DNA of 64,000 bases from an uncultured Candidatus Entotheonella sp. (GCA_951828535.1 OX639990.1:109300-173299); one strand, 5' to 3'. Numbered from the stretch's first letter, positions 1-43,442 are shown. Numbers and translations: made by a program. The notes: generated from the sequence alone by a model not told the origin.

Positions 1-16
1 GGGCGCCTGTGTTTGG

Positions 17-547
17 TTGGGCCTGATCGTGGCAACTGTTTTGGCGCTGCATCCCATACAGGCGAATGCCTCAGACGGCCTCGCCCCTCCTTGGGGTATG
101 CGGGCTCCGAGTAAATCCGTAACTCTCCCAGCCTTTGAGCTCCCCGATTCCGGGGGTGAGGTCGTTCGTGCCAGCGACCTACAAGGCAAGGTGGTGGTCG
201 TACGATTCTGGGCCACTTGGTGAGGGAACTGCCGACGCGAGATGCCCTCCGTGCAGAGGGTACACGAAGCCTTCCGGAAAGATGATGTCGCGATGATTGC
301 CGTTTCCATTGACCGCGGCGGTTTACCGACGGTGCGGTTCTTCCTTGCCGGGTATGCATACACCTTTCCCACGCTGGTGGATCAGAAGATGACGCTGGCT
401 CGCGCGCTTCGCGCCCGCGGCGTTCCGTATACGCTCGTCATCAACCGCGAGGGCAAGGTTGTTGCCCGGGCCTCCGGACCTTTCAATCTCGACAGCAGCT
501 CGTTCCGCCAGTACATTGCCGATCTGGCAGCGCAGCCGCGCAGCTAA
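17..547 (+). CDS. TlpA/ResA-family periplasmic thiol:disulfide oxidoreductase, candidate selenoprotein (UGNC active site, TGA 221-223 read as Sec)
   Basis: ORFs 17..223 and 242..547 share one frame and are separated only by TGA (221-223) plus 6 sense codons. The joined product reads ...VVVRFWATW[TGA]GNCRREMPSVQRVHEAF..., the TlpA/ResA 'FWATWCxxCrxEMP' active-site context. The N-terminus looks like a signal peptide (..ATVLALHPIQANA). The TTG start at 17 is uncertain. Confidence 0.7.
243..262 (+). promoter_or_regulatory. Candidate bacterial SECIS-like hairpin downstream of the in-frame UGA
   Basis: 7-bp stem UGCCCUC/GAGGGUA (one G-U pair) with a 6-nt loop CGUGCA, starting 20 nt 3' of the UGA. 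Shape and position fit a bSECIS but are not diagnostic. An alternative pairing exists (222-226 with 245-249). Confidence 0.3.
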
Positions 548-555
548 TGTGCGTT

Positions 556-1032
556 CACTGGACCAGGTCTGGTTCGGGGCCGTGGCCACCAGTTCGGGTT
601 TGGCGTACTGGGGATGCTCACGCTGATGGCGCCTCTCTCGGACCTGCTGGTTGGTGGCCAGGATCCGTGCATGGTGCGCTCCGAGCACAGGTAGCGGCCT
701 TCGTCGAGCAGTGTTGCCACCACCTCCGCAGCCGCACGGTCAACGAAGCGTGGACAGGCGAGCACATCGAGGACCTACTCGCGCTCGGCGTCACACAGCG
801 CCCGGGCGGGCGTTGAACGGGGCTGCTGCTGCCCGGGAGTTAACCTCTGACGACGGTAGAAAGTCGCCCGCGACACGCCCGGCACGATGCCGACCTGCTC
901 TGCCAACGATTGGGCCTCCATCAGGAGCGCGTTTCGTGTTCGATGCTCAATCCCAGCAGCCCGGATATTTTTCCCTAACTCCTTGGTCTTCGCCTCCTGG
1001 AAGGATCGCATAAAGGTCATGCCCGACCTCAA
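556..1032 (-). pseudogene. IS3-family (HTH + rve type) transposase remnant, frameshifted and 3'-truncated
   Basis: Minus-strand frames give an HTH block ..AEQVGIVPGVSRATFYRRQR.. (775..1032). After frame changes they give ..RFVDRAAAEVVATLLDEGRYLCSERTMH.. and ..RERRHQREHPQYAKPELVATAPNQTWS... This is the typical N-terminal half of IS3-type transposases. The DDE core is absent, and homology stops a few nt from the tlpA-like stop codon. Confidence 0.55.
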
Positions 1033-1221
1033 GGCGGTCTACCGGGCCGAGACGGCCGCGGCGGCCAGGCTCGACGAGTTCGAAGCCCGCTGGGGCCAGC
1101 GCTACCCGGCGGTGGTCCCAGCTTGGCGGCGCGCCGTTTCGCATCTGCACCGGCTCCAGCAACTCCCCCGGTTGGTTGCCGGCTTCTTTCACACTCCCAC
1201 CACGCTATATGCGAGCGTTTA
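1010..1221 (+). pseudogene. IS256/Mutator-family transposase C-terminal remnant
   Basis: ..MPDLKAVYRAETAAAARLDEFEARWGQRYPAVVPAWRR.. matches the conserved C-terminal block of IS256-type transposases (DLKaIY...A...L..F...W...YP). No N-terminal part is present. The remnant is interrupted by the IS inserted at 1222. Confidence 0.45.
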
Positions 1222-2035
1222 GGGCCTGTTAACACAAATGAGCATATCATGCTATGATTGACGAATGGAAATCACTGAAACTCAGTACCAACGCATCGCA
1301 CCCTACCTGCCGATACAACGCGGCAACGTCAGGGTGTCCAACCGGCATGTTCTGAACGCTATCCTGTACGTCGCTGAGCATGGTTGCAAATGGCGCGGCC
1401 TGCCCCAGTCCTTTGGCAATTGGCACACCATCTACACCCGCATGAATCGCTGGTCGAAAAACGGCGTGCTCGACCGCGTGTTCGAACACCTGCAGCGAGA
1501 GCAGATCGTGCGCCTTAAACTTGAGGTGCTCTCCATGGACAGCACCTCAGTCAAGGTGCATCCCGATGGCACGGGGGCGTTAAAAAAAACGGTCACCAAG
1601 CCATTGGCAAATCCCGCGGCGGCTGGACCACCAAGATTCATATGGTTGCCGCGGATTCTCGCACGGCGCTGACGTTTTCGTTGTCACCTGGGCAGGCGCA
1701 CGACGCCCCGCAAGGGCGTGACCTGCTGCGTGGTCTTGGTGCATGGCAGGAGTCCTGCTCCTTGGTCATGGACCGCGCCTATGAAGGCGACGAGACGCGG
1801 CAGTTGGCCTTGGACCTGGGTTTCACCCCGGTGGTACCGCCTCTGAGTACACGGGTGGAGCCGTGGGAATACGACCGAGAACTATACAAACGCCGCAACG
1901 AGATAGAGCGGTTGTTTCGTCGTCTGAAGGGTTTTCGTCGCATTTTCAGTCGCTACGAGAAGCTCGACGTGATCTTCCTGGGCTTTATCCTCTTCGCGCT
2001 CATCTTCGATGCGCTGCGATAGTGTGAACAGGCCC
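1222..2035 (+). mobile_element. Intact IS5-family (IS427-group-like) insertion sequence, 814 bp
   Basis: Terminal inverted repeats GGGCCTGTTAACAC (1222-1235) and GTGTGAACAGGCCC (2022-2035) match 13/14. They are flanked by a TA/TA direct duplication (1220-1221 and 2036-2037). Two overlapping transposase ORFs lie inside. Confidence 0.8.
1265..2022 (+). CDS. IS5/IS427-group DDE transposase, orfA-orfB fusion via -1 programmed frameshift
   Basis: orfA is 1265..1672 (..RHVLNAILYVAEHGCKWRGLP..WHTIYTRMNRWSKNGV..). orfB is 1642..2022 (..VMDRAYEGDETR..YKRRNEIERLFRRLKGFRRIFSRYEKL..). The slippery A8 run at 1582-1589 lies in the overlap. Reading -1 from it gives ..LKKNGHQAIGKSRGGWTTKIHMVAAD.., the canonical family junction. 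Confidence 0.8.
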
Positions 2036-2084
2036 TAGTCCGCCTCCCGTAAACACGGGGACGGTTCATTGACGTTCCTTCCAG

Positions 2085-3585
2085 TAACTGGAGAGCCTCT
2101 TGCAGAATTACGAAACGACTGGATTTATTGCAGATTGGAGTAGGATGACTTTGGCTGGGACAGGCCGACCCTCCTGAGTATCATGGTGTCCTCCACAGAC
2201 CTCATGACGAGGAGAGCGGCCATGCCCCTGCGCGAGACTCTATCGAACTATTGGTATGCCTTTCAACAAGAACTGTTCCCCAGACTCGAAATGGAGTTTG
2301 GCCCCCTGAGCGGGCGCTATGGACTCTTTGTTGCGGTCCTCGAGTTCGTGCGCCTCGAAATCCTTTTGCCGTCCATGTCCAGCTTGCCAGGCCGGCCACC
2401 GCAGGATCGCGCCGCACTGGCGCGCGCCTTCATTGCCAAGGCGGTCTTCGACATCCCGACAACGCGGGCCCTCATCGAACGTCTGCGGGTTGACCAGACA
2501 CTTCAGCGCCTGTGCGGCTTCAGCAGCGCCTGCCGACTTCCGAGCGAGGCCACGTTCTCACGCGGCTTTGCCGAATTCGCCGACAGCGCCCTGGTTAGCC
2601 GTCTGCACGAGGCGCTGGTTACGCGGACGATGAAGGGCCACTTGGTCGGGCATATCTCGCGCGATGCCACGGCAATCGCGGGCCGTGAAAAGCCGCTGCC
2701 GAAGGTGCCTGGCGCACGCCGAACGAAGCGCCAGCGAGGGCGCCCGCGAAAGGGTGAACAACGGCCCAAGGAACCCACCCGCCTGCAACGTCAGTTAGCC
2801 ATGACGCTGCCGCAAATGTTGGACGAGTTGCCAAAGCCGTGCGACGTCGGAGTGCGGACAAACGCCAAGGGCGCGTTTGAAAAGTGGGTCGGCTACAAGC
2901 TGCACGTCGACGCCGCCGATGGCGGCGTGCCGGTGAGTTGTATTTTGACCTCGGCGTCGCTGCATGACTCACAAGCAGCCATCCCATTGGCACGTCTGAC
3001 GGCTGGGCGGGTTAACAACCTCTACGACCTGATGGACGCAGCTTACGACGCTGAGGAGATACGGGCCTACAGTCGAAACCTCGGCCACGTGCCGATCATC
3101 GACTTCAACCCCCGGGGATCGGGCGGGCGAGGCGAAGCGATCAAGCGCGAAGCAACGGCACGCCGCGCTCTTGGCTATGTTTTTCCGGAACAGCGGCGCT
3201 ACCACGAACGCACGACCGTCGAGCGGGTGTATGCGCGGCTCAAGGAGGAGTTCGGCGGTCGTCATGTTCGGGTACGGGGGCACGCGAAGGTGCTATGCCA
3301 CCTCATGTTGGGCATCCTTGCGCTGGCGGTCAGCCAGCTGATGCACCTGCTGCCACCGCTCTGATGGAGCTTGTTCGCCCGACATCACTGCAACACCGCC
3401 CTCATGGAGGGCCGGGGACAACCTTGCCCACAGGTCGTAGAACCTGCTCCAACTGGACACCGAGGTAACTCTTGCAGCACGTTCCTTAAGCCTTCATGCC
3501 TATTGCGGCTCAAGGCGACGCTTCGTGCTTCCGTAGCCGAGCCTGCAGTTGCTCATGAATTTTGCAAGAGGCTCGTTCTATACAG
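2085..3585 (+). mobile_element. IS5-family insertion sequence (approximate ends)
   Basis: Inverted repeat GAGCCTCTTGCAGAATT (2093-2109) matches the reverse complement of AATTTTGCAAGAGGCTC (3559-3575) at 16/17 and brackets the transposase gene. The exact termini and target duplication were not resolved. Confidence 0.55.
2183..3364 (+). CDS. IS5-family DDE transposase (DUF772 N-terminal domain + DDE_Tnp_1)
   Basis: 393 aa. The N-terminal block is ..ALARAFIAKAVFDIPTTRALIERLRVDQTLQRLCGF..PSEATFSRGFAEF... The DDE region is ..GYKLHVDAADGG..YDLMDAAYDAEEIR... The C-terminal block is ..ERVYARLKEEFGGRHVRVRGHAKV... Confidence 0.8.
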   Translation: MVSSTDLMTRRAAMPLRETLSNYWYAFQQELFPRLEMEFGPLSGRYGLFVAVLEFVRLEILLPSMSSLPGRPPQDRAALARAFIAKAVFDIPTTRALIERLRVDQTLQRLCGFSSACRLPSEATFSRGFAEFADSALVSRLHEALVTRTMKGHLVGHISRDATAIAGREKPLPKVPGARRTKRQRGRPRKGEQRPKEPTRLQRQLAMTLPQMLDELPKPCDVGVRTNAKGAFEKWVGYKLHVDAADGGVPVSCILTSASLHDSQAAIPLARLTAGRVNNLYDLMDAAYDAEEIRAYSRNLGHVPIIDFNPRGSGGRGEAIKREATARRALGYVFPEQRRYHERTTVERVYARLKEEFGGRHVRVRGHAKVLCHLMLGILALAVSQLMHLLPPL

Positions 3586-6774: not shown

Positions 6775-8781
<2,007 letters not shown>

Positions 8782-14602: not shown

Positions 14603-15940
14603 TCAATTGGACTGGAATAGCCCACCGGCCCTCCAGTTGGACGGCTGTCCAGCCAGACGGTTTTCGCCGCCGCTCACGCTGGCAGCCCAGCCGCCGGCCT
14701 CGTTGTCCCGACCGCCGCTGACGCTGGAAGCCCAGCCTCTGGCCTTGTTGTCCCGACCGCCGCTGACGCTGGAAGCAATTGAGCTGGCCTCATTGTATCT
14801 GCCGCCGCTAACGCTCGCAAAATTCCCACTGGCCTCGTTGTATCTGCCGCCGCTGACGCTGGCAAAAGTACCGCTGGCGTCATTGTACTGACCGCCGCCA
14901 ACGCTGGCCCGAGAGCCGCTGGCCGTGTTGCTGCCGCCGCCGCTGACGCTGGTATACTCCCCGCTGGCCTCATTGTTTTTGCCGCCGCTGACGCTGGCAT
15001 AAGCGCCGCTGGCCTTGTTGCCAAAACCGCCGCTGACACTGGCTTGAGAGCCGCTGGCCTCATTGTTCCGACCGCCGCTGATGCTGGCATTACTACTGTT
15101 GGCCGTGTTGTTGGAACCGCCGCTGACGCTGGTACTACTGCCGCTGGCGGTATTGCTGCTGCCGCCGCTGACGCTGGCATAATCGCCGCTGGCCTCGTTG
15201 CTTTCACCGCCGCTGACGCTGGCATAAGTGCCGCTGGCCTTGTTGGAGTCACCGCCGCTGACGCTGGCAAACTCCCCGCTGGCCTCGTTGCTGGAACCGC
15301 CGCTGACGCTGGCCCAAGAGTGGCTGGCCTCGTTGCTGGCACCGCCGCTGACGGTGGCAGTATCGCCGCTGGCCTTGTTGACGGAACCGCCGCTGACGCT
15401 GGAATAATGGCCGCTGGCTTCGTTGTTAAAACCGCCGCTGACGCTGGCATACGATCCGCTCACGATGTTGTTGTAGCCCGCCACCAAGCCGCCATAACTC
15501 GAATAGCTGTGCAGCGAACCAATCACCACATTATGCGAGCCCTCGCGAGCAGAGGAGCCACTACTGTCACTCTCATTGTAGCCAATGATCAGATTGCCGA
15601 CGCCGTTGCTGCTTTCAGTGTTTCCCTGGCCGTTTTGCACGTGCACGTTGCAGCCCGTAAAGATGACATCGTCGACCGAGCCCGCTCCCGACGCCGTGGT
15701 CATGCAGTCGGGCATGCCTGCTGCCGCGCCGTTAATCAGGCTTTGCAGCGTAGCATCCTGGGCTTGCAGCGCGCCAATTTGGGCCTGCAGCGTATTATTC
15801 TGGGCTTGTAGTGCGCCCATCTGGGCCTGCAACGCGTTAATCTGGGCTTGCAACTGGCTATGGGTCTGCGCCGCCGCTGGCAGGGCGGCGAGACCACCGC
15901 ACACCAACGCCAATGCCAGGGTCTTCATGAGTCGGGTCAT
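14603..15940 (-). CDS. Secreted repeat protein 1: signal peptide + LQAQ heptad coiled coil + Cys-containing domain + 18 x 14-aa SVSGGxxNxASGxx repeats (YadA-head/Hep_Hag-like)
   Basis: The N-terminus MTRLMKTLALALVCGGLAALPAAAQ is a signal peptide. It is followed by LQAQINALQAQMGALQAQNNTLQAQIGALQAQ and then ..DCMTTASGAGSVDDVIFTGCNVHVQNG..NLIIGYNE... Next come 18 tandem 14-residue repeats, and the protein ends ..NWRAGGLFQSN. A GGAG RBS precedes the ATG at 15940. Confidence 0.8.
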   Translation of the reverse strand: MTRLMKTLALALVCGGLAALPAAAQTHSQLQAQINALQAQMGALQAQNNTLQAQIGALQAQDATLQSLINGAAAGMPDCMTTASGAGSVDDVIFTGCNVHVQNGQGNTESSNGVGNLIIGYNESDSSGSSAREGSHNVVIGSLHSYSSYGGLVAGYNNIVSGSYASVSGGFNNEASGHYSSVSGGSVNKASGDTATVSGGASNEASHSWASVSGGSSNEASGEFASVSGGDSNKASGTYASVSGGESNEASGDYASVSGGSSNTASGSSTSVSGGSNNTANSSNASISGGRNNEASGSQASVSGGFGNKASGAYASVSGGKNNEASGEYTSVSGGGSNTASGSRASVGGGQYNDASGTFASVSGGRYNEASGNFASVSGGRYNEASSIASSVSGGRDNKARGWASSVSGGRDNEAGGWAASVSGGENRLAGQPSNWRAGGLFQSN

Positions 15941-16403
15941 GCTCAACTCCTTCACAGGGTCGTGTTTGTGTTGGTCTTACGAATTGGAGGCCGTGCATTA
16001 TAGAGGTAAGGTCTGATCAAGGACACCGGGGGTGTCACCATCTGGCGTTGAACCGGGGGGTTTGGGAGGATCAGGGAGATACAACAGCGGGCAGTCGCGG
16101 AATGGGAAGACGACGGCGAGCGCCAATCGAAAGCTCCTTCGGCGTCGCCGCGTGGGGCTTCCTATCAGACGTCCAGGGTCTCAGGCGGCTCTTGAGGGGT
16201 GTAGCAAGCGCCGTGAAGCCCAGCCCCCGTGGGGCCTCTCGGAAGCCGCCTGTTCGAACGGCCGGATTCGTCCCTGCATGGGCTTCTCTGGCCGCCCCGG
16301 AGCCGGCTGCAGGGGACGGGAGGTGTACCGCTGCAGCCGGCTCGGCGCTGTCGCCTCGAGCAGGGCATTGTTGGGGAGGCCGGCGGGAACCGCTTGGCCC
16401 ACG
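15941..16403. repeat. Conserved non-coding module, copy 2 (5'UTR/promoter of gene 1 + A + B; lacks the ~125-nt X segment)
   Basis: Aligns with 14053-14602 and 17091-17622. Relative to the other copies, the segment between ..GGAATGGGAAGACGACGG and CGAGCGCCAATCGAAAG.. is deleted. Confidence 0.75.
15997..16020 (-). promoter_or_regulatory. Candidate promoter of fibre gene 1 (conserved TATAAT)
   Basis: The minus strand reads CCTTGATCAGACCTTACCTCTATAATGCACGG. TATAAT is conserved before all three paralogues, about 55 nt upstream of the ATG. The -35 is poor (TTGATC at only 12-nt spacing). Confidence 0.4.
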
Positions 16404-17622: not shown

Positions 17623-18687
17623 CTAGTTGCTCTGAGAGAGCCCGCCGGCCCGCCAGTTGTGCAAGCCGGAAGCCGTCCGGTCAGAGCCGCCGCTGACGCT
17701 GGCCCGATCGCCGCTGGCCTCGTTCATATAACCGCCGCTGACGCTGGCAGCAACGCCGCTGGCCGTGTTGTTTTTGCCGCCGCTGACGCTGGCAAACGCC
17801 TCGCTCACCGTATTGCTATAGCCGGCCACCAAACCCCCATAACTCGAATAGCTGTGGTCAGAACCGATCACCACATTATGCGAGCCATTGCGGACCAGGG
17901 AGCCAACATGCTCATTGTAGCCAATGATCAGATTGCCCAGGCCGTTGTTGCTATCGGTGCTTCCATGGCCGTTTTGCACGTGCACGTCGCAACCCGTAAA
18001 GATGACATCGTCGACCGCACCGGCACCCGGAGCCGTGGTCATGCAGTCCGGAACCGCAGGTAAAATGGCAAAATCGCCGCTGGCCGTGTTGTCCTGACCG
18101 CCGCTGACGCTGGCAGCATAGCCGCTGGCCACGTTATAGCTACCGCCACTGACGCTGGCAGTCCAGCCACTTGCTTTGTTGAACTGGCCGCCGCTGACGC
18201 TGGAATATTCCCCGCTCACCGTATTACCCCAGCCCGTCACCAAACCGCCATAACTCGAATAGCTGTGCCCAGGACCGATCACTACATTATGCGAGCCGCT
18301 GCGGGCGGGGGAGCCACTGCCCCCAATTTCATTGTAGCCAATGATCAGGTTACCCACGCCGTTGCTGCTATCGGTGCCTCCATGGCCGTTTTGCACGTGT
18401 ACGTTGCAGCCCTTAAAAATGACATCGTCGACCGCACCGGCACCCAAAGCCGTGGTCATGCAGTCGGGAATGTCCGCTGCCACGCCGTTAATCAGGCTTT
18501 GCAGCGTCGCCATCTGGGCCATGTGGGCTTGTTGCAGCGTGGCCATCTGTCCTTGTAGCGCGCCCATCTGGGCTTGCAACGCGTTAATCTGGGCTTGCAG
18601 TTGGCTATGGGTCTGCGCCGTAGCTGGCAAAGCGGCGAGCCCGCTGCACAGCATCGCCAATACCAGGGTCTTCATGAGTCGTGTCAT
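17623..18687 (-). CDS. Secreted repeat protein 3 (paralogue; duplicated head module, 3 + 3 repeats)
   Basis: It has signal peptide MTRLMKTLVLAMLCSGLAALPATAQ and an LQAQ coiled coil. The ..DCMTTA.GAGAVDDVIF.GC.VHVQNGHG..NLIIGYNE.. module occurs twice, each time followed by 3 SVSGGxxNxASG repeats. The protein ends ..HNWRAGGLSQSN. Confidence 0.8.
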   Translation of the reverse strand: MTRLMKTLVLAMLCSGLAALPATAQTHSQLQAQINALQAQMGALQGQMATLQQAHMAQMATLQSLINGVAADIPDCMTTALGAGAVDDVIFKGCNVHVQNGHGGTDSSNGVGNLIIGYNEIGGSGSPARSGSHNVVIGPGHSYSSYGGLVTGWGNTVSGEYSSVSGGQFNKASGWTASVSGGSYNVASGYAASVSGGQDNTASGDFAILPAVPDCMTTAPGAGAVDDVIFTGCDVHVQNGHGSTDSNNGLGNLIIGYNEHVGSLVRNGSHNVVIGSDHSYSSYGGLVAGYSNTVSEAFASVSGGKNNTASGVAASVSGGYMNEASGDRASVSGGSDRTASGLHNWRAGGLSQSN

Positions 18688-18854
18688 GCTCAACTCCTTC
18701 ACAGGGTCGTGTCTATGTTGATCATACGAATGGGAGGCCGTGGATTATAGAGGCAAGGTCTGATCAAGGACATCAGCGGCGTCACCATCTGACGTTGAAC
18801 CGGGGGGTTTGGGAGGCTCAGGGAGATGCAACAGCGGCCAGCCGCGGAATGGGA
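18688..18854. repeat. Conserved non-coding module, copy 4 (5'UTR/promoter of gene 3 + truncated A)
   Basis: Same sequence as 15941-16100 and 17091-17260. Homology ends after GGAATGGGA at 18854. Confidence 0.7.
18744..18768 (-). promoter_or_regulatory. Candidate promoter of fibre gene 3 (conserved TATAAT)
   Basis: The reverse complement of 18744-18749 is TATAAT, in the same context as genes 1 and 2. Confidence 0.4.
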
Positions 18855-30809: not shown

Positions 30810-30875
30810 GTCTGCCATCGTAGAAAGCAAGTACGTTCCCTTTTGGGGAACGATTTCACTCTTCAAGGAGGGATT

Positions 30876-32639
30876 ATGTCCAGTAGAACCTTCACGGCCC
30901 TTGCGGTCGCGTTCGTGGTCAGCCTGGCCATGGCGTTCAGCGCCGCGGCCCAGGATATTCCACCGACTCCGACGCCGGGACCGATAGCGAATTACAGTAC
31001 CGTGACGGACGACCGGCTGGCCAGCCAGGAAGCGCATAACTGGCTGCAGATTCGCGGCAACTACGAGGGCTGGATGCATAGCCCCCTGGATCAGATCAAC
31101 ACCGGCAACGTGGCGAACCTGCGGCCGTCGTGGATGTTCTCGACTGGCGTGGTGGAAGGCCACCAGGCACCGCCGGTTGTCAACGACGGCATTATGTTCG
31201 TGACCACGCCGAGCAACCAGACCATCGCCCTCGACGCGGCGACCGGTGCGCAGATCTGGCGCTACCGGCGTGAGAAGCCCGAGGATCTGGTTGAGATTCA
31301 CCCGACCAACCGCGGCCCCGGCCTGTACGGCGACCAGGTGTTCGTCGTGACCACGGACTGCTTCCTGGTAGCCCTCGACGCCAAGACCGGCGAGGTGAAT
31401 TGGGAAGTGGCGGTCGACGACTACCAAAAGGGTTACTACACGACCCTGGCGCCCCTGACCGCGCGGGGCAAGGTGCTCGTTGGCGTATCCGGCGGCGAGT
31501 TCGGCATCCGCGGCTACGTGGCGGCCTACAATGTGGACGACGGCACCCAGGCGTGGCGTACCTACACAATTCCCGCCCCTGGCGAGCCGGGCCACGAGAC
31601 CTGGACGGCCGACTCCTGGCAGACGGGCGGCGGCTCCTCCTGGGTCACCGGCATTTTTGACGTCGAGACCGGGATCGTCTACTGGGGCGTTGGCAACGGC
31701 GCACCGTGGGCAGGCGACCGGCGCGGCAGCCTGGACAACCTGTACACCACTTCCGTTATCGCCCTGAACCTCGAAAGCGGCCAGATCATCGGCCACCACC
31801 AGTACCATTGGAACGATTCCTGGGACTGGGATGAGGTTTCTCCTCCGATTCTCACTGATCTCACCTACGGCGGCCGTACCTTCAAGGCCCTCGTCAACGT
31901 GGCCCGTAACGGCCACATCTTTGTGCTGGAACCCTCCCCGGAAGGTCCGATTGGGTTCGTGGATGCGTGGAACTACGTGTACAGCGACGTGGTCACCGCC
32001 ATCGATCCCGAGACCGGGCGCTTCACCTATGACGACGCCCACTGGCCGAAGACGAACGTGAGCGCGCCGTTCTGCCCCTCCCTGTGGGGCGGCAAGGACT
32101 GGCCGTACGTGTCCTACAGCCCGGCCAGCGGCCTGCTCTACATCCCGGCCAACGAGAACATCTGCAGCACCATGGCCGGCGATGAGTCGGAATATGTTGC
32201 CGGTGAGTTGTGGCTCGGCGTGAACATCCCGGAACTCGTCGAAGGCTTCTACCTGCGTGAAGGCTGGGAGCACATCGGCGAAATTCAGGCCTGGGACGTG
32301 GGCAACAAGAACGAGGTGTGGAAGCACACCTTCAAGCACCACAACTGGGGTCCGATCCTGTCCACCGGCGGCGGCCTGCTGTTTGCCGGCGGCACCAACG
32401 ACCGCATGTTCCGCGCCTTTGACGCGGCAACCGGCGCGGTGCTGTGGGAGTACCCCACCAACTCCGGTATCGGCGCTCCCCCGAGCACCTACTCGCTGAA
32501 CGGCAAGCAGTACGTCGCCGTGGCGTCCGGCTGGGGTGTCGACGCGGAACGCAAGCAGGACATCTTGCGGCGGGAGATTCCGGGTTACGCGGAACACGTG
32601 CCGCAGGGTGGTGTCGTATGGGTCTTCGAGCTGCCGTAA
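30876..32639 (+). CDS. PQQ-dependent alcohol/methanol dehydrogenase family quinoprotein (8-bladed propeller)
   Basis: It has a signal peptide MSSRTFTALAVAFVVSLAMAFSAAAQ, ..HQAPPVVNDGIMFV.., ..SGGEFGIRGY.., ..WGVGNGAPW.., and ..HWNDSWDWDEVS... An AAGGAGGG RBS is present. Confidence 0.9.
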   Translation: MSSRTFTALAVAFVVSLAMAFSAAAQDIPPTPTPGPIANYSTVTDDRLASQEAHNWLQIRGNYEGWMHSPLDQINTGNVANLRPSWMFSTGVVEGHQAPPVVNDGIMFVTTPSNQTIALDAATGAQIWRYRREKPEDLVEIHPTNRGPGLYGDQVFVVTTDCFLVALDAKTGEVNWEVAVDDYQKGYYTTLAPLTARGKVLVGVSGGEFGIRGYVAAYNVDDGTQAWRTYTIPAPGEPGHETWTADSWQTGGGSSWVTGIFDVETGIVYWGVGNGAPWAGDRRGSLDNLYTTSVIALNLESGQIIGHHQYHWNDSWDWDEVSPPILTDLTYGGRTFKALVNVARNGHIFVLEPSPEGPIGFVDAWNYVYSDVVTAIDPETGRFTYDDAHWPKTNVSAPFCPSLWGGKDWPYVSYSPASGLLYIPANENICSTMAGDESEYVAGELWLGVNIPELVEGFYLREGWEHIGEIQAWDVGNKNEVWKHTFKHHNWGPILSTGGGLLFAGGTNDRMFRAFDAATGAVLWEYPTNSGIGAPPSTYSLNGKQYVAVASGWGVDAERKQDILRREIPGYAEHVPQGGVVWVFELP

Positions 32640-34211: not shown

Positions 34212-34282
34212 CAGCACCATCCTGCTATGCTCTCTGGTCTTGCATTGTCCGACTGCCTCTGTTAAGGTCACGGCTATTCGCT

Positions 34283-34376
34283 AGGGGTGTGAGACGCTGA
34301 GAGTTACCGGGACGATTCGTATCTCTGGTAACAACCCTCAGAACCTGACCTGGGTAATGCCAGCGTAGGGAAGCGC
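34283..34376 (+). promoter_or_regulatory. TPP (THI-box) riboswitch
   Basis: The sequence is GGGGTGTGAGACGCTGAGAGTTACCGGG...TCTCTGGTAACAACCCTCAGAACCTGACCTGGGTAATGCCAGCGTAGGGAAGC. It contains the conserved CUGAGA, ACCC..GAACCUGA and UAAUGCCAGCGUAGGGAA blocks. Confidence 0.9.
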
Positions 34377-34440
34377 CATTCACGCATCGCCGGGCCGCAG
34401 GCCGGATGCGCTCAGAGAATGGGTCCTTTACGGAAGCTGA

Positions 34441-34710: not shown

Positions 34711-35490
34711 ATGCAACAAGACGATTTGCTGGAGATTGGGGGTAAAACGTTCGGTTCACGGCTCATCGTCGGCACCGGCAAATATCCCACCATGGACCTG
34801 ATGCAGCAGTGCCACGAGGCTTCCGGGGCGGACATGGTGACCGTCGCGCTGCGGCGCATGGAACTGCCGGACAGCAAGCAAACGCTGCTGGATTACATCG
34901 ACCGCGACCGTTTCACCATTTTGCCCAACACCGCCGGGTGCTACGACGCCGAGTCCGCTATCCTCACCGCCCGGCTGGCGCGCGAGGCGGGGCTGTCGGA
35001 CTTCATCAAGCTGGAAGTGATCGGCGACCCGAAGACCCTCTTCCCGGACGTGGTGGATTTGCTGGAAGCCACCCGCGTGCTGGCCAAGGAAGGCTTCATC
35101 GTCATGCCCTACACCAACGACGACCCGGTGATGGCCAAGAAGCTCGAGGACGCCGGCGCCGCGGTCGTCATGCCACTCGGTGCGCCGATAGGCTCCGGCC
35201 TGGGCATCTGCAACCCCTACACCGTCCGGCTGGTTATGGAAGCGGTGCAGGTGCCGGTGATCGTCGACGCGGGCGTCGGCACGGCCTCCGACGCCGCGGT
35301 GGCCATGGAACTCGGTGTGGACGGCGTGCTGATGAACACCGGCATTGCCGGCGCCAAGGACCCCCTGGCCATGGCCCACGCCATGCGCATGGCTGTGGAG
35401 GCCGGCCGCCTGGCTTTCAAGGCCGGGCGTATCGAGCGTAAGCTCTACGCCACCGCCAGCAGCCCGCTGGAGGGCGTCATTGGCACCTGA
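34711..35490 (+). CDS. thiG: Thiazole synthase ThiG
   Basis: It has ..[11 protein letters not shown].., ..TVALRR.., ..ILPNTAGC.., ..KLEVIGD..TLFPD.., and ..[44 protein letters not shown]... Confidence 0.95.
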
Positions 35491-35603: not shown

Positions 35604-36260
35604 ATGCCAGTTAACACCCGGCAGAGGAGGGGAACGCATGGCCCCGGCTTTCGCCTCTACGTGGTGACCGACCGGCACCAAACCGCCGGGCGCCCCTTGG
35701 CGGAAGTGGTTGCGGCGGCGGCGCGCGGCGGGGTGGGAGCTGTTCAGTTGCGGGAGAAGGATCTCAGCGCCCGTGAACTCTACGATTTGGGCGCGTGCCT
35801 GCAAGAGGTGTTAAGTCCCTACCGGGTGCCGCTGCTGATCAACGACCGCCTCGACGTCGCCCTGGCCCTGCACGCCGCCGGCGTTCATTTGGCTGGTCAT
35901 TCCCTGCCCACCCGAACGGCCCGCAGCATGCTGGGACCCGACAAGCTTCTCGGCGTTTCCACCCACAGCCTCGACGCGGCGCATCAAGCCGCGGAAGAAG
36001 GCGCCGACTTCGTGGTCTTCGGTCCCGTCTTCGCAACCCCCTCCAAACTCGCCTACGGCCCGCCGCAGGGCCTGTCGCAACTGGCCGCGGTGGTACGGGA
36101 CGTTTCCATCCCGGTACTGGCCATCGGCGGCATCACGCCCGTCAATCTCCCGCAAGTGCAGCAGACCGGAGCGCACGGCGTCGCCATGATCCGCGCCGTC
36201 CTCGCAGCGCCCGATCCGTGCGCGGCGACCCAGCAGTTGTGTCGTTTACTTGCCGAATAA
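35604..36260 (+). CDS. thiE: Thiamine-phosphate synthase ThiE
   Basis: It has ..LYVVTDR.., ..GGVGAVQLREKDLSAREL.., ..LINDRLDVALALHAAGVHL.., ..GVSTHS.., ..GADFVVFGPVFATPSK.., and ..VLAIGGI... Start is uncertain. Confidence 0.85.
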   Translation: MPVNTRQRRGTHGPGFRLYVVTDRHQTAGRPLAEVVAAAARGGVGAVQLREKDLSARELYDLGACLQEVLSPYRVPLLINDRLDVALALHAAGVHLAGHSLPTRTARSMLGPDKLLGVSTHSLDAAHQAAEEGADFVVFGPVFATPSKLAYGPPQGLSQLAAVVRDVSIPVLAIGGITPVNLPQVQQTGAHGVAMIRAVLAAPDPCAATQQLCRLLAE

Positions 36261-42941: not shown

Positions 42942-43442
42942 ATGCAGCGAGCAATTGTAGCCTTAAGCCTTGCCGTCCTGTTGTCCGTCGCTATGACGGG
43001 CGTCCTGCCGACAGCGGGGCAACACCATCATCACCACGAACACCAGGGCCACCAGGACACTCACAAGCACCATAGGTGGCGAACCCCGCCCGCGGCATAC
43101 GCCGACAAGGTCAGCCACCGCTGGGGTGACGACGGTGCCATTGCGCGGGGCAAGGCGCTGTACGACACCCACTGCACCGCCTGCCACGGCGCCGATGGCC
43201 TCGGCACCACCGCCTTTGCCAAGGCCCTGCCGCATCCGCCCGCCGACCTCATGCACCACTTCCACCTGCATCCCGGGGAGGGGGATGCCTATCTGTACTG
43301 GCGCGTCAGCGAGGGCGGAATGGTGGAACCCTTCAAGTCAGCGGAATCGCTCATGCCGGCGTTTAAAACGTTGCTCAGTGAGGACGAGCGCTGGGACGTT
43401 CTCGCCTACGTGTGCGCTGCGTTTCACCGGGGCTTCGAGTGA
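42942..43442 (+). CDS. Periplasmic class I c-type cytochrome with His-rich N-terminal segment
   Basis: It has a signal peptide, GQHHHHHEHQGHQDTHKHH, the haem motif CTACHG, and a distal ..LMPAF... Confidence 0.8.
   Translation: MQRAIVALSLAVLLSVAMTGVLPTAGQHHHHHEHQGHQDTHKHHRWRTPPAAYADKVSHRWGDDGAIARGKALYDTHCTACHGADGLGTTAFAKALPHPPADLMHHFHLHPGEGDAYLYWRVSEGGMVEPFKSAESLMPAFKTLLSEDERWDVLAYVCAAFHRGFE

Follow-up and report, generated by a model that had tools for sequence, protein, structure and literature searches.

At the start of the 64,000-nucleotide stretch of DNA analysed here (the window), two open reading frames, 17..223 and 242..547, follow one another on the plus strand, the first of them closing with a TGA codon at 221-223. 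The question raised by this locus is whether that TGA ends a gene, disables one, or is decoded as selenocysteine (Sec) in the middle of one. The earlier note favoured the last of these, and each prediction of the Sec reading that could be tested held, these being alignment of the codon with Cys in homologues, conservation of the TGA, selection on both sides of it, a hairpin downstream and the normal use of TGA as a stop elsewhere in the window. Judged from comparative sequence data, the TGA almost certainly specifies Sec, at the active site of a thioredoxin-like redox enzyme that is probably exported. The fuller reading, to which we give a probability of about 0.88, is that positions -22..547, counted from the first base of the window, encode one 189-residue extracytoplasmic TlpA/ResA-like oxidoreductase, with its UGA recoded as Sec by means of the hairpin and with the active site U82-G-N-C85.

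Reading frame, protein family and Cys homologues

Translation of the window shows that the two open reading frames are indeed one, as had been proposed, with a single frame running from 2 to 547 and the TGA at 221-223 as its sole interruption. The sequence around this codon is RFWATW-TGA-GNC-RREMPSVQR, with …LQGKVVVVRFWATW-TGA-GNCRREMPSVQRVHEAF… as the wider context, and the fused translation reads ...GKVVVVRFWATW*GNCRREMPSVQRVHEAF... and terminates at a TAA (545-547). The TTG at 17 that had been taken as the start of the frame turned out to be an artefact of the window edge. Two near-identical loci, L006 (in the 99.9-100% identity class over window positions 1..1222) and L007 (likewise over 1..1115), continue upstream and have the true ATG 23 nt 5′ of window base 1, after AAGGAGGTG. 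It is preceded by a strong Shine-Dalgarno sequence, AAGGAGG, which accordingly lies 23 nt or more outside the window, and the first eight codons (MSRLRRAG) are known from these two loci.

The gene spans -22..547 and its product is made up of 81 residues, U82, a further 6 residues and a final 101, giving 189 in total. Codons 9-81 occupy positions 1..220 (+), read in frame from window base 2, and end in RFWATW; this part takes in what is left of a signal-peptide-like stretch (…ACVWLGLIVATVLALHPIQANA|SDG) as well as the opening strand of the thioredoxin fold. The TGA (221..223, +), read as residue U82, falls where a CxxC motif has its N-terminal, nucleophilic Cys. It is followed by six codons (224..241, +) encoding GNCRRE, among them the resolving Cys of the UxxC motif (TGC, 230-232), and then by the 101-residue C-terminal part (242..547, +), which gene callers treat separately as an 'AhpC-TSA/Redoxin' fragment beginning at the Met of E-M-P.

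With C written in place of U, the fused protein matches the Pfam families AhpC-TSA (PF00578, 88.4 bits against a cut-off of 26), Redoxin (PF08534, 83.3 bits against 26.6) and Thioredoxin_8 (PF13905, 48.5 bits against 27). Among NCBIfam models the top ranks were taken by ResA, TlpA, a WAxxUGC TlpA-like selenoprotein and StoA, all of them far under their curated cut-offs. Assignment as an orthologue of ResA (NF002854, 89.6 against 170), TlpA (NF047696, 80.3 against 230) or DsbE (TIGR00385, 35.8 against 123) was rejected on these scores. The selenoprotein model itself, NF041054 (WAxxUGC_long), was also set aside, with 73.4 bits against 300, a UxxC rather than a U-G-C spacing, and a length of 189 rather than about 354 residues. 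The closest protein of known structure is 3kcm, a thioredoxin-family protein from Geobacter (E 2.6e-26), followed by ResA (3c71/1st9) and TlpA (1jfu). Inspection of the N-terminus (MSRLRRAGGACVWLGLIVATVLALHPIQANA|SDG) shows the n/h/c organisation and AxA site of a signal peptide, apparently a cleavable one, the N-termini of relatives being similar. The predicted product would thus be a thiol-disulfide oxidoreductase of the TlpA/ResA-like type, located outside the cytoplasm and with U-x-x-C at its active site.

The earlier note had placed the TGA on the nucleophilic Cys of the thioredoxin motif, and the alignments bear this out. The codon matches a Cys in the homologues P0019, P0023 and P0025, in the Cys-form loci listed by a genome scan and in the structures 3kcm and 3c71, where it falls on the first Cys of WATWCPPC or WGTWCPHC. 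The closest Cys forms, P0019 and P0023 (44% identity), read FWATWCGYC. The genome scan used the pattern FWA[TS]WC, with C at the Sec position, which picks out Cys forms, and served as a Cys-form control; among the matches listed, 64 loci have WxxW-[C/U]xxC, comprising 63 Cys forms and one Sec form, L008.

Gene callers everywhere annotate this locus as though the TGA were a true stop, which would leave an 81-residue fragment followed by a 101-residue fragment re-initiated at the ATG at 242, 18 nt past the TGA, or else a nonsense pseudogene. Such splitting had been anticipated and is widespread in databases, a protein search having found some 25 clusters, each of exactly 101 residues, all starting MPSVQR and 45-98% identical to the C-terminal half. 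The same exact length across diverged clusters means that in many genomes the call breaks off at this one codon. Taken as biology rather than as annotation, however, the split would leave the two ends of the CxxC motif on separate products, and the Met chosen as the start is a conserved internal residue (E-M-P) in the Cys homologues as well.

Three JGI metagenome gene calls (P0002, P0008 and P0024) treat the codon in another way, showing W at the Sec position (WATWWTIC), which suggests that the TGA was translated under code 4. Use of a TGA=Trp code on short contigs is the presumed source of these calls, and it produces a silent mis-annotation unlike the usual truncation. They are also what could be cited for the proposal that the TGA is Trp or Gly under an alternative code, or that it is a sequencing or assembly error. 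This proposal is effectively refuted, as the TGA recurs in dozens of independent assemblies and technologies, the catalytic position holds Cys in homologues and not Trp or Gly, and TGA is the commonest stop in the window, ending 15 of the 32 Pfam-supported genes, from which it follows that the code is not reassigned.

Conservation of the TGA and of the hairpin downstream

A metagenome scan yielded 80 further loci with 47-56% identity, the position in question being present in 77. Of these, 76 have TGA and none has TGC or TGT. The one locus without it, L124, has lost its 5′ end through rearrangement, and in no relative is the split accompanied by additional disabling mutations, an outcome that according to the earlier note would have counted against Sec. 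TGA is also found in three more distant loci with 43-71% identity, namely L001 (70%; FWASW-TGA-GTC), L003 (NCBI GCA_041806335.1, about 45%; FWATW-TGA-SSC), both with the N-terminal half in frame, and L008, the Sec form from the genome collection.

Selection acts on both sides of the codon. Comparison of the window lineage with diverse relatives by the Nei-Gojobori method gave dN/dS values of 0.12-0.29 over the 32 codons 5′ of the TGA and 0.11-0.30 over the 94 codons 3′ of it, with synonymous sites near saturation (dS from 0.9 to saturated). Within the six codons that separate the TGA from the ATG at 242, the Cys of UxxC is fixed as an amino acid with its codon varying (TGC in 60 and TGT in 7 of 67 unique sequences), and so is the Glu of GNCRRE (GAG in 61, GAA in 6). 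A fixed residue with synonymous variation means that 224..241 is selected at the protein level and must be translated, which excludes both a family-level pseudogene and a stop followed by a restart. The high conservation 3′ of the TGA could in principle serve re-initiation; against this stand the protein-level selection on those six codons and the fact that a nonsense mutation would not be expected to last in 76 of 77 orthologues whose two halves both show a dN/dS of about 0.2. We therefore regard a true stop, whether with re-initiation or as a nonsense pseudogene, as very improbable, and decoding of the TGA as Sec as the reading to be followed further.

Decoding as Sec in bacteria calls attention to the RNA just 3′ of the codon. 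A putative bacterial SECIS hairpin lies at 243..262 (+), with arms UGCCCUC (243-249) and GAGGGUA (256-262) enclosing the loop CGUGCA (250-255). This is the hairpin and loop that had been described beforehand as lying 20 nt downstream; the element is present, while its stem starts 19 nt after the UGA. It has 7 bp, a predicted energy of -10.3 kcal/mol and G-U at loop positions 2-3. The loop starts 26 nt after the UGA, within the coding sequence for M-P-S-V-Q-R-V. The bSECISearch model allows a distance of 16-37 nt between UGA and loop, and the 26 nt found here falls inside this range.

The conservation of the hairpin was examined in a comparison set of 67 unique 123-nt segments around the TGA. 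Nineteen nucleotides, ATGCCCTCCGTGCAGAGGG (242-260), are unchanged in 66 of the 67, synonymous positions included, and the sole variant, in L003, is a change of CCC to CCU that turns a C-G pair into U·G and is compatible with the stem. At the Ser, Val, Gln and Arg codons the synonymous entropy is 0 bits, and the Pro codon has 0.11 bits, compared with 0.3-1.4 bits in flanking codons. The Arg in the hairpin core is AGG in 67/67 sequences, while the Arg six codons before U is CGN in 65/66. RNAalifold, applied to 24 diverse sequences, predicted one element, the 7-bp hairpin, with five pairs fixed, outer pairs varying compatibly (G·U/G-C and U-A/U·G) and the closing pair mismatched in 3 of the 24. 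The pair changes in this set comprise G·U to G-C in 5/24 and C-G to U·G in 1/24, with no compensatory double changes among the 24 sequences. The lack of covariation is due to the core of the hairpin never varying, so that its support comes from conservation.

The Cys forms provide the contrast. The 63 among the matches listed use varied codons at E-M-P-x-x, and the core sequence and hairpin occur in none of them. The mean minimum free energy of the equivalent 30 nt was -5.0 kcal/mol for the 64 listed matches (L008 included) versus -10.4 kcal/mol for the Sec forms. An 86-nt fold containing the hairpin was no more stable than its shuffles (z = -0.24); for this reason the significance of the hairpin derives from the comparative data and not from thermodynamics. 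Searches against the Rfam SECIS families gave 0 matches over the window at the gathering threshold and 0 over 200-330 at E<=10. By these sequence comparisons, the hairpin at 243-262 is under RNA-level constraint, and its placement is that of bacterial SECIS geometry.

In the proposed mechanism, the UGA at 221-223 would be recoded by a SelB·GTP·Sec-tRNA(Sec) complex, with dependence on SelB being presumed, and SelB would be tethered to the hairpin at 243-262 through the CGUGCA loop 26 nt 3′ of the UGA. The exported protein would then act as a selenol/thiol reductant, the selenolate attacking the substrate and C85 bringing about resolution.

Decoding machinery, gene neighbourhood and a possible partner peroxiredoxin

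The genes for Sec incorporation were sought in the window and around the relatives. ARAGORN found no tRNA-Sec in the window, which is without any tRNA gene, or in 1.56 Mb of the other loci compared. SelA, SelB and SelD were absent from the 40 window ORFs searched with Pfam, and no selA, selB or selD gene was seen in the flanks examined. Further selenoprotein candidates in the window were gene-boundary artefacts only. Full Sec machinery has been reported in Entotheonella genomes (preprint 10.1101/2024.12.22.630014), and homologs of SelA and SelB have been noted in Entotheonella (PMC12858407). The UvrB protein of the window (uvrB, 6775-8781) is 82-83% identical to proteins of Candidatus Tectomicrobia and Entotheonellaceae, and the host appears to be a Tectomicrobia/Entotheonellaceae-like bacterium. 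Taken with this affiliation, the published reports lend indirect support to Sec decoding here, and expression of the gene in the present genome would be expected on the Sec reading.

The window also carries a TPP riboswitch (34273-34388; Rfam RF00059, 65.9 bits) 5′ of thiS/thiG (34711-35490) and thiE (35604-36260). One member of the ThiG cluster is annotated under the sponge Geodia barretti and is probably a symbiont sequence. Other genes of the window include uvrB/uvrC, an Mla system, a PQQ dehydrogenase, a Cus-like RND pump and hopanoid genes. Two ORFs on the minus strand, 14603-15955 and 17623-18702, have repeat-type matches (UspA1_rep and the LbR_Ice_bind beta-roll) and a GC3 lower than that of their neighbours; these may encode low-complexity or adhesin-like proteins, or may be repeats without coding function.

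In the relatives, the TlpA-like gene has a single conserved neighbour. An exported AhpC/TSA peroxiredoxin gene with Sec at the peroxidatic position lies about 20 nt 3′ of it in 59 of 67 informative loci, namely L001 (10328-10903), L003 (10331-10900) and 57 loci among L088-L167, where it too is recorded as a split 'AhpC-TSA' call. Its motif is AF(T/G)xx-U-TQEALAFQ, and it has a conserved stem-loop of its own that starts 17 nt after its UGA and shows compensatory changes in L001. A second Sec gene adjoining the first in 59 of 67 relatives indicates that those organisms decode UGA as Sec. CcdA/DsbD, Sco and Ccm genes were found neither near the TlpA-like gene nor near its relatives, leaving this peroxiredoxin, Prx-U, as the sole conserved neighbour.

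With the two genes side by side and both products predicted to be exported, the likeliest task of the reductase would be to re-reduce the partner Sec-peroxiredoxin, or possibly other periplasmic targets, the redox partner being a supposition drawn from the gene order. The most economical model is a two-component relay for reducing peroxide outside the cytoplasm, the Sec-peroxiredoxin being re-reduced by the UxxC protein. PQQ-dependent dehydrogenase and cytochrome c genes are found in the window (30843-32639, +, and 42942-43442, +) and also near the L001 cassette (L001:901-2679), there together with pqq biosynthesis genes. Speculatively, these may reflect a periplasmic oxidative metabolism that creates a need for peroxide defence.

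The partner peroxiredoxin gene is absent from the entire 64-kb window. The site that it occupies in relatives is filled by an IS insertion of about 813 bp (1223..2035, with ORFs 1265-1672 and 1642-2022), which is missing from the otherwise 99.9% identical L006, and by a transposase ORF at 2183-3364. In L006, 3 or 4 transposase genes lie directly 5′ of the selenoprotein gene (L006 6426-9568), marking the region as an IS hotspot.

This arrangement brings in the possibility that the family is genuine and the present copy a stranded, non-functional remnant on its way to becoming a pseudogene, IS insertions having taken its partner and perhaps its promoter. The transposase genes directly 5′ (in L006) and 3′ (window 1265-3364), the one IS that the window has in addition to those of L006, and the loss from the whole window of a peroxiredoxin kept in 59 of 67 relatives are all in keeping with such decay. 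The gene itself shows none of it, however, as the ORF is full length and the family-invariant residues, the UxxC motif, the SECIS core and the strong Shine-Dalgarno sequence are all intact; in addition, about 170 nt of intergenic DNA remain 5′ of the gene to hold a promoter, and the identical protein is found in several independent assemblies. The IS elements on either side and the loss of the partner could impair expression or function in this lineage, but we consider a remnant improbable, though less so than a true stop, and the gene probably a functional one encoding a Sec-containing reductase.

A broader proposal is put forward tentatively, and we think it somewhat less probable than its negation. 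The gene may be one half of a so far undescribed, self-contained two-gene cassette, common in soil metagenomes, in which an exported UxxC TlpA-like reductase and a TxxU-type peroxiredoxin form a selenium-based peroxide relay. The hairpin is base-identical across lineages with a G+C content of 50-63%, with the synonymous sites around it saturated, and this could point to unusually strict recognition by SelB. Here IS elements would have disrupted the cassette, so that only the reductase remains.

Relation to known selenoproteins and significance

The replacement of Cys by Sec in thioredoxin-fold proteins is, as the earlier note stated, an established class, and UxxC selenoproteins of the AhpC-TSA, Redoxin and TlpA-like kinds have long been catalogued. 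'Prx-like' and 'thiol-disulfide isomerase-like' UxxC selenoproteins are defined in PMC13188914 (Table 1) and PMC2398784 (Table 2), with further definitions of UxxC families in PMC9312934 and PMC1088965. The present protein has both the domain (PF00578/PF08534/PF13905, cd02966) and the UxxC motif of this catalogued group, whose published exemplars include WP_010940744.1, WP_011366075.1 and MGB1650493.1, and by these two features it belongs to that kind, while its identity with any one catalogued subfamily is putative. It shares with the group the AhpC-TSA, Redoxin and Thioredoxin_8 affiliation, Sec in place of the first Cys of CxxC, a small stem-loop with a G-containing apical loop just 3′ of the UGA, and widespread Cys homologs. 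The present clade differs in being, by prediction, exported and usually paired with a Sec-peroxiredoxin gene, and in coming mostly from soil metagenomes along with a Tectomicrobia-like genome rather than from marine plankton or Deltaproteobacteria. Adjoining selenoprotein gene pairs have been noted earlier, including Prx/Prx-like 2 on GOS reads, so that the tandem is only mildly new.

With TlpA of Bradyrhizobium, ResA of Bacillus and CcmG/DsbE the protein has in common the fold, the WxxW-CxxC-x-x-E-[MF]-P context and a putative N-terminal export or anchor segment. It is unlike them in having Sec at the nucleophilic Cys and in the lack of cytochrome c maturation, Sco or CcdA/DsbD genes nearby. 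The NF041054 family also has a TlpA-like domain with Sec right after WAxx, and its HMM gives a weak match spanning the domain; its members, however, have the adjacent-Cys arrangement U-G-C and about 354 residues, in contrast to U-x-x-C and 189 residues here. The hairpin resembles the E. coli fdhF-type SECIS and the bSECISearch consensus in being placed within the coding sequence, a little 3′ of the UGA, and in having a small apical loop with G(U) towards the 5′ end. It departs from the fdhF type in its short 7-bp stem placed 19 nt past the UGA and with no evident bulged U, and the SelB site within it is putative.

Taken together, the comparisons argue for a genuine selenoprotein gene of a kind already known, which annotation has wrongly split and which has what appears to be an unusually rigid SECIS. 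It adds a well-supported, probably exported UxxC selenoprotein to those on record, and its relatives point to a candidate periplasmic pair of Sec-reductase and Sec-peroxiredoxin. The current understanding of Sec decoding is unchanged by it. The invariant 19-nt hairpin is a clean natural case of a SECIS constraining synonymous sites, and it could be of use in motif searches and as a test substrate in work on SelB specificity beyond model organisms. The gene and dozens of its relatives are at present recorded as fragments of 81 and 101 residues or with W at the Sec position. As a consequence the record lacks the half of a redox enzyme that carries the active site, and the use of selenium by soil bacteria and Tectomicrobia-like bacteria is under-counted.
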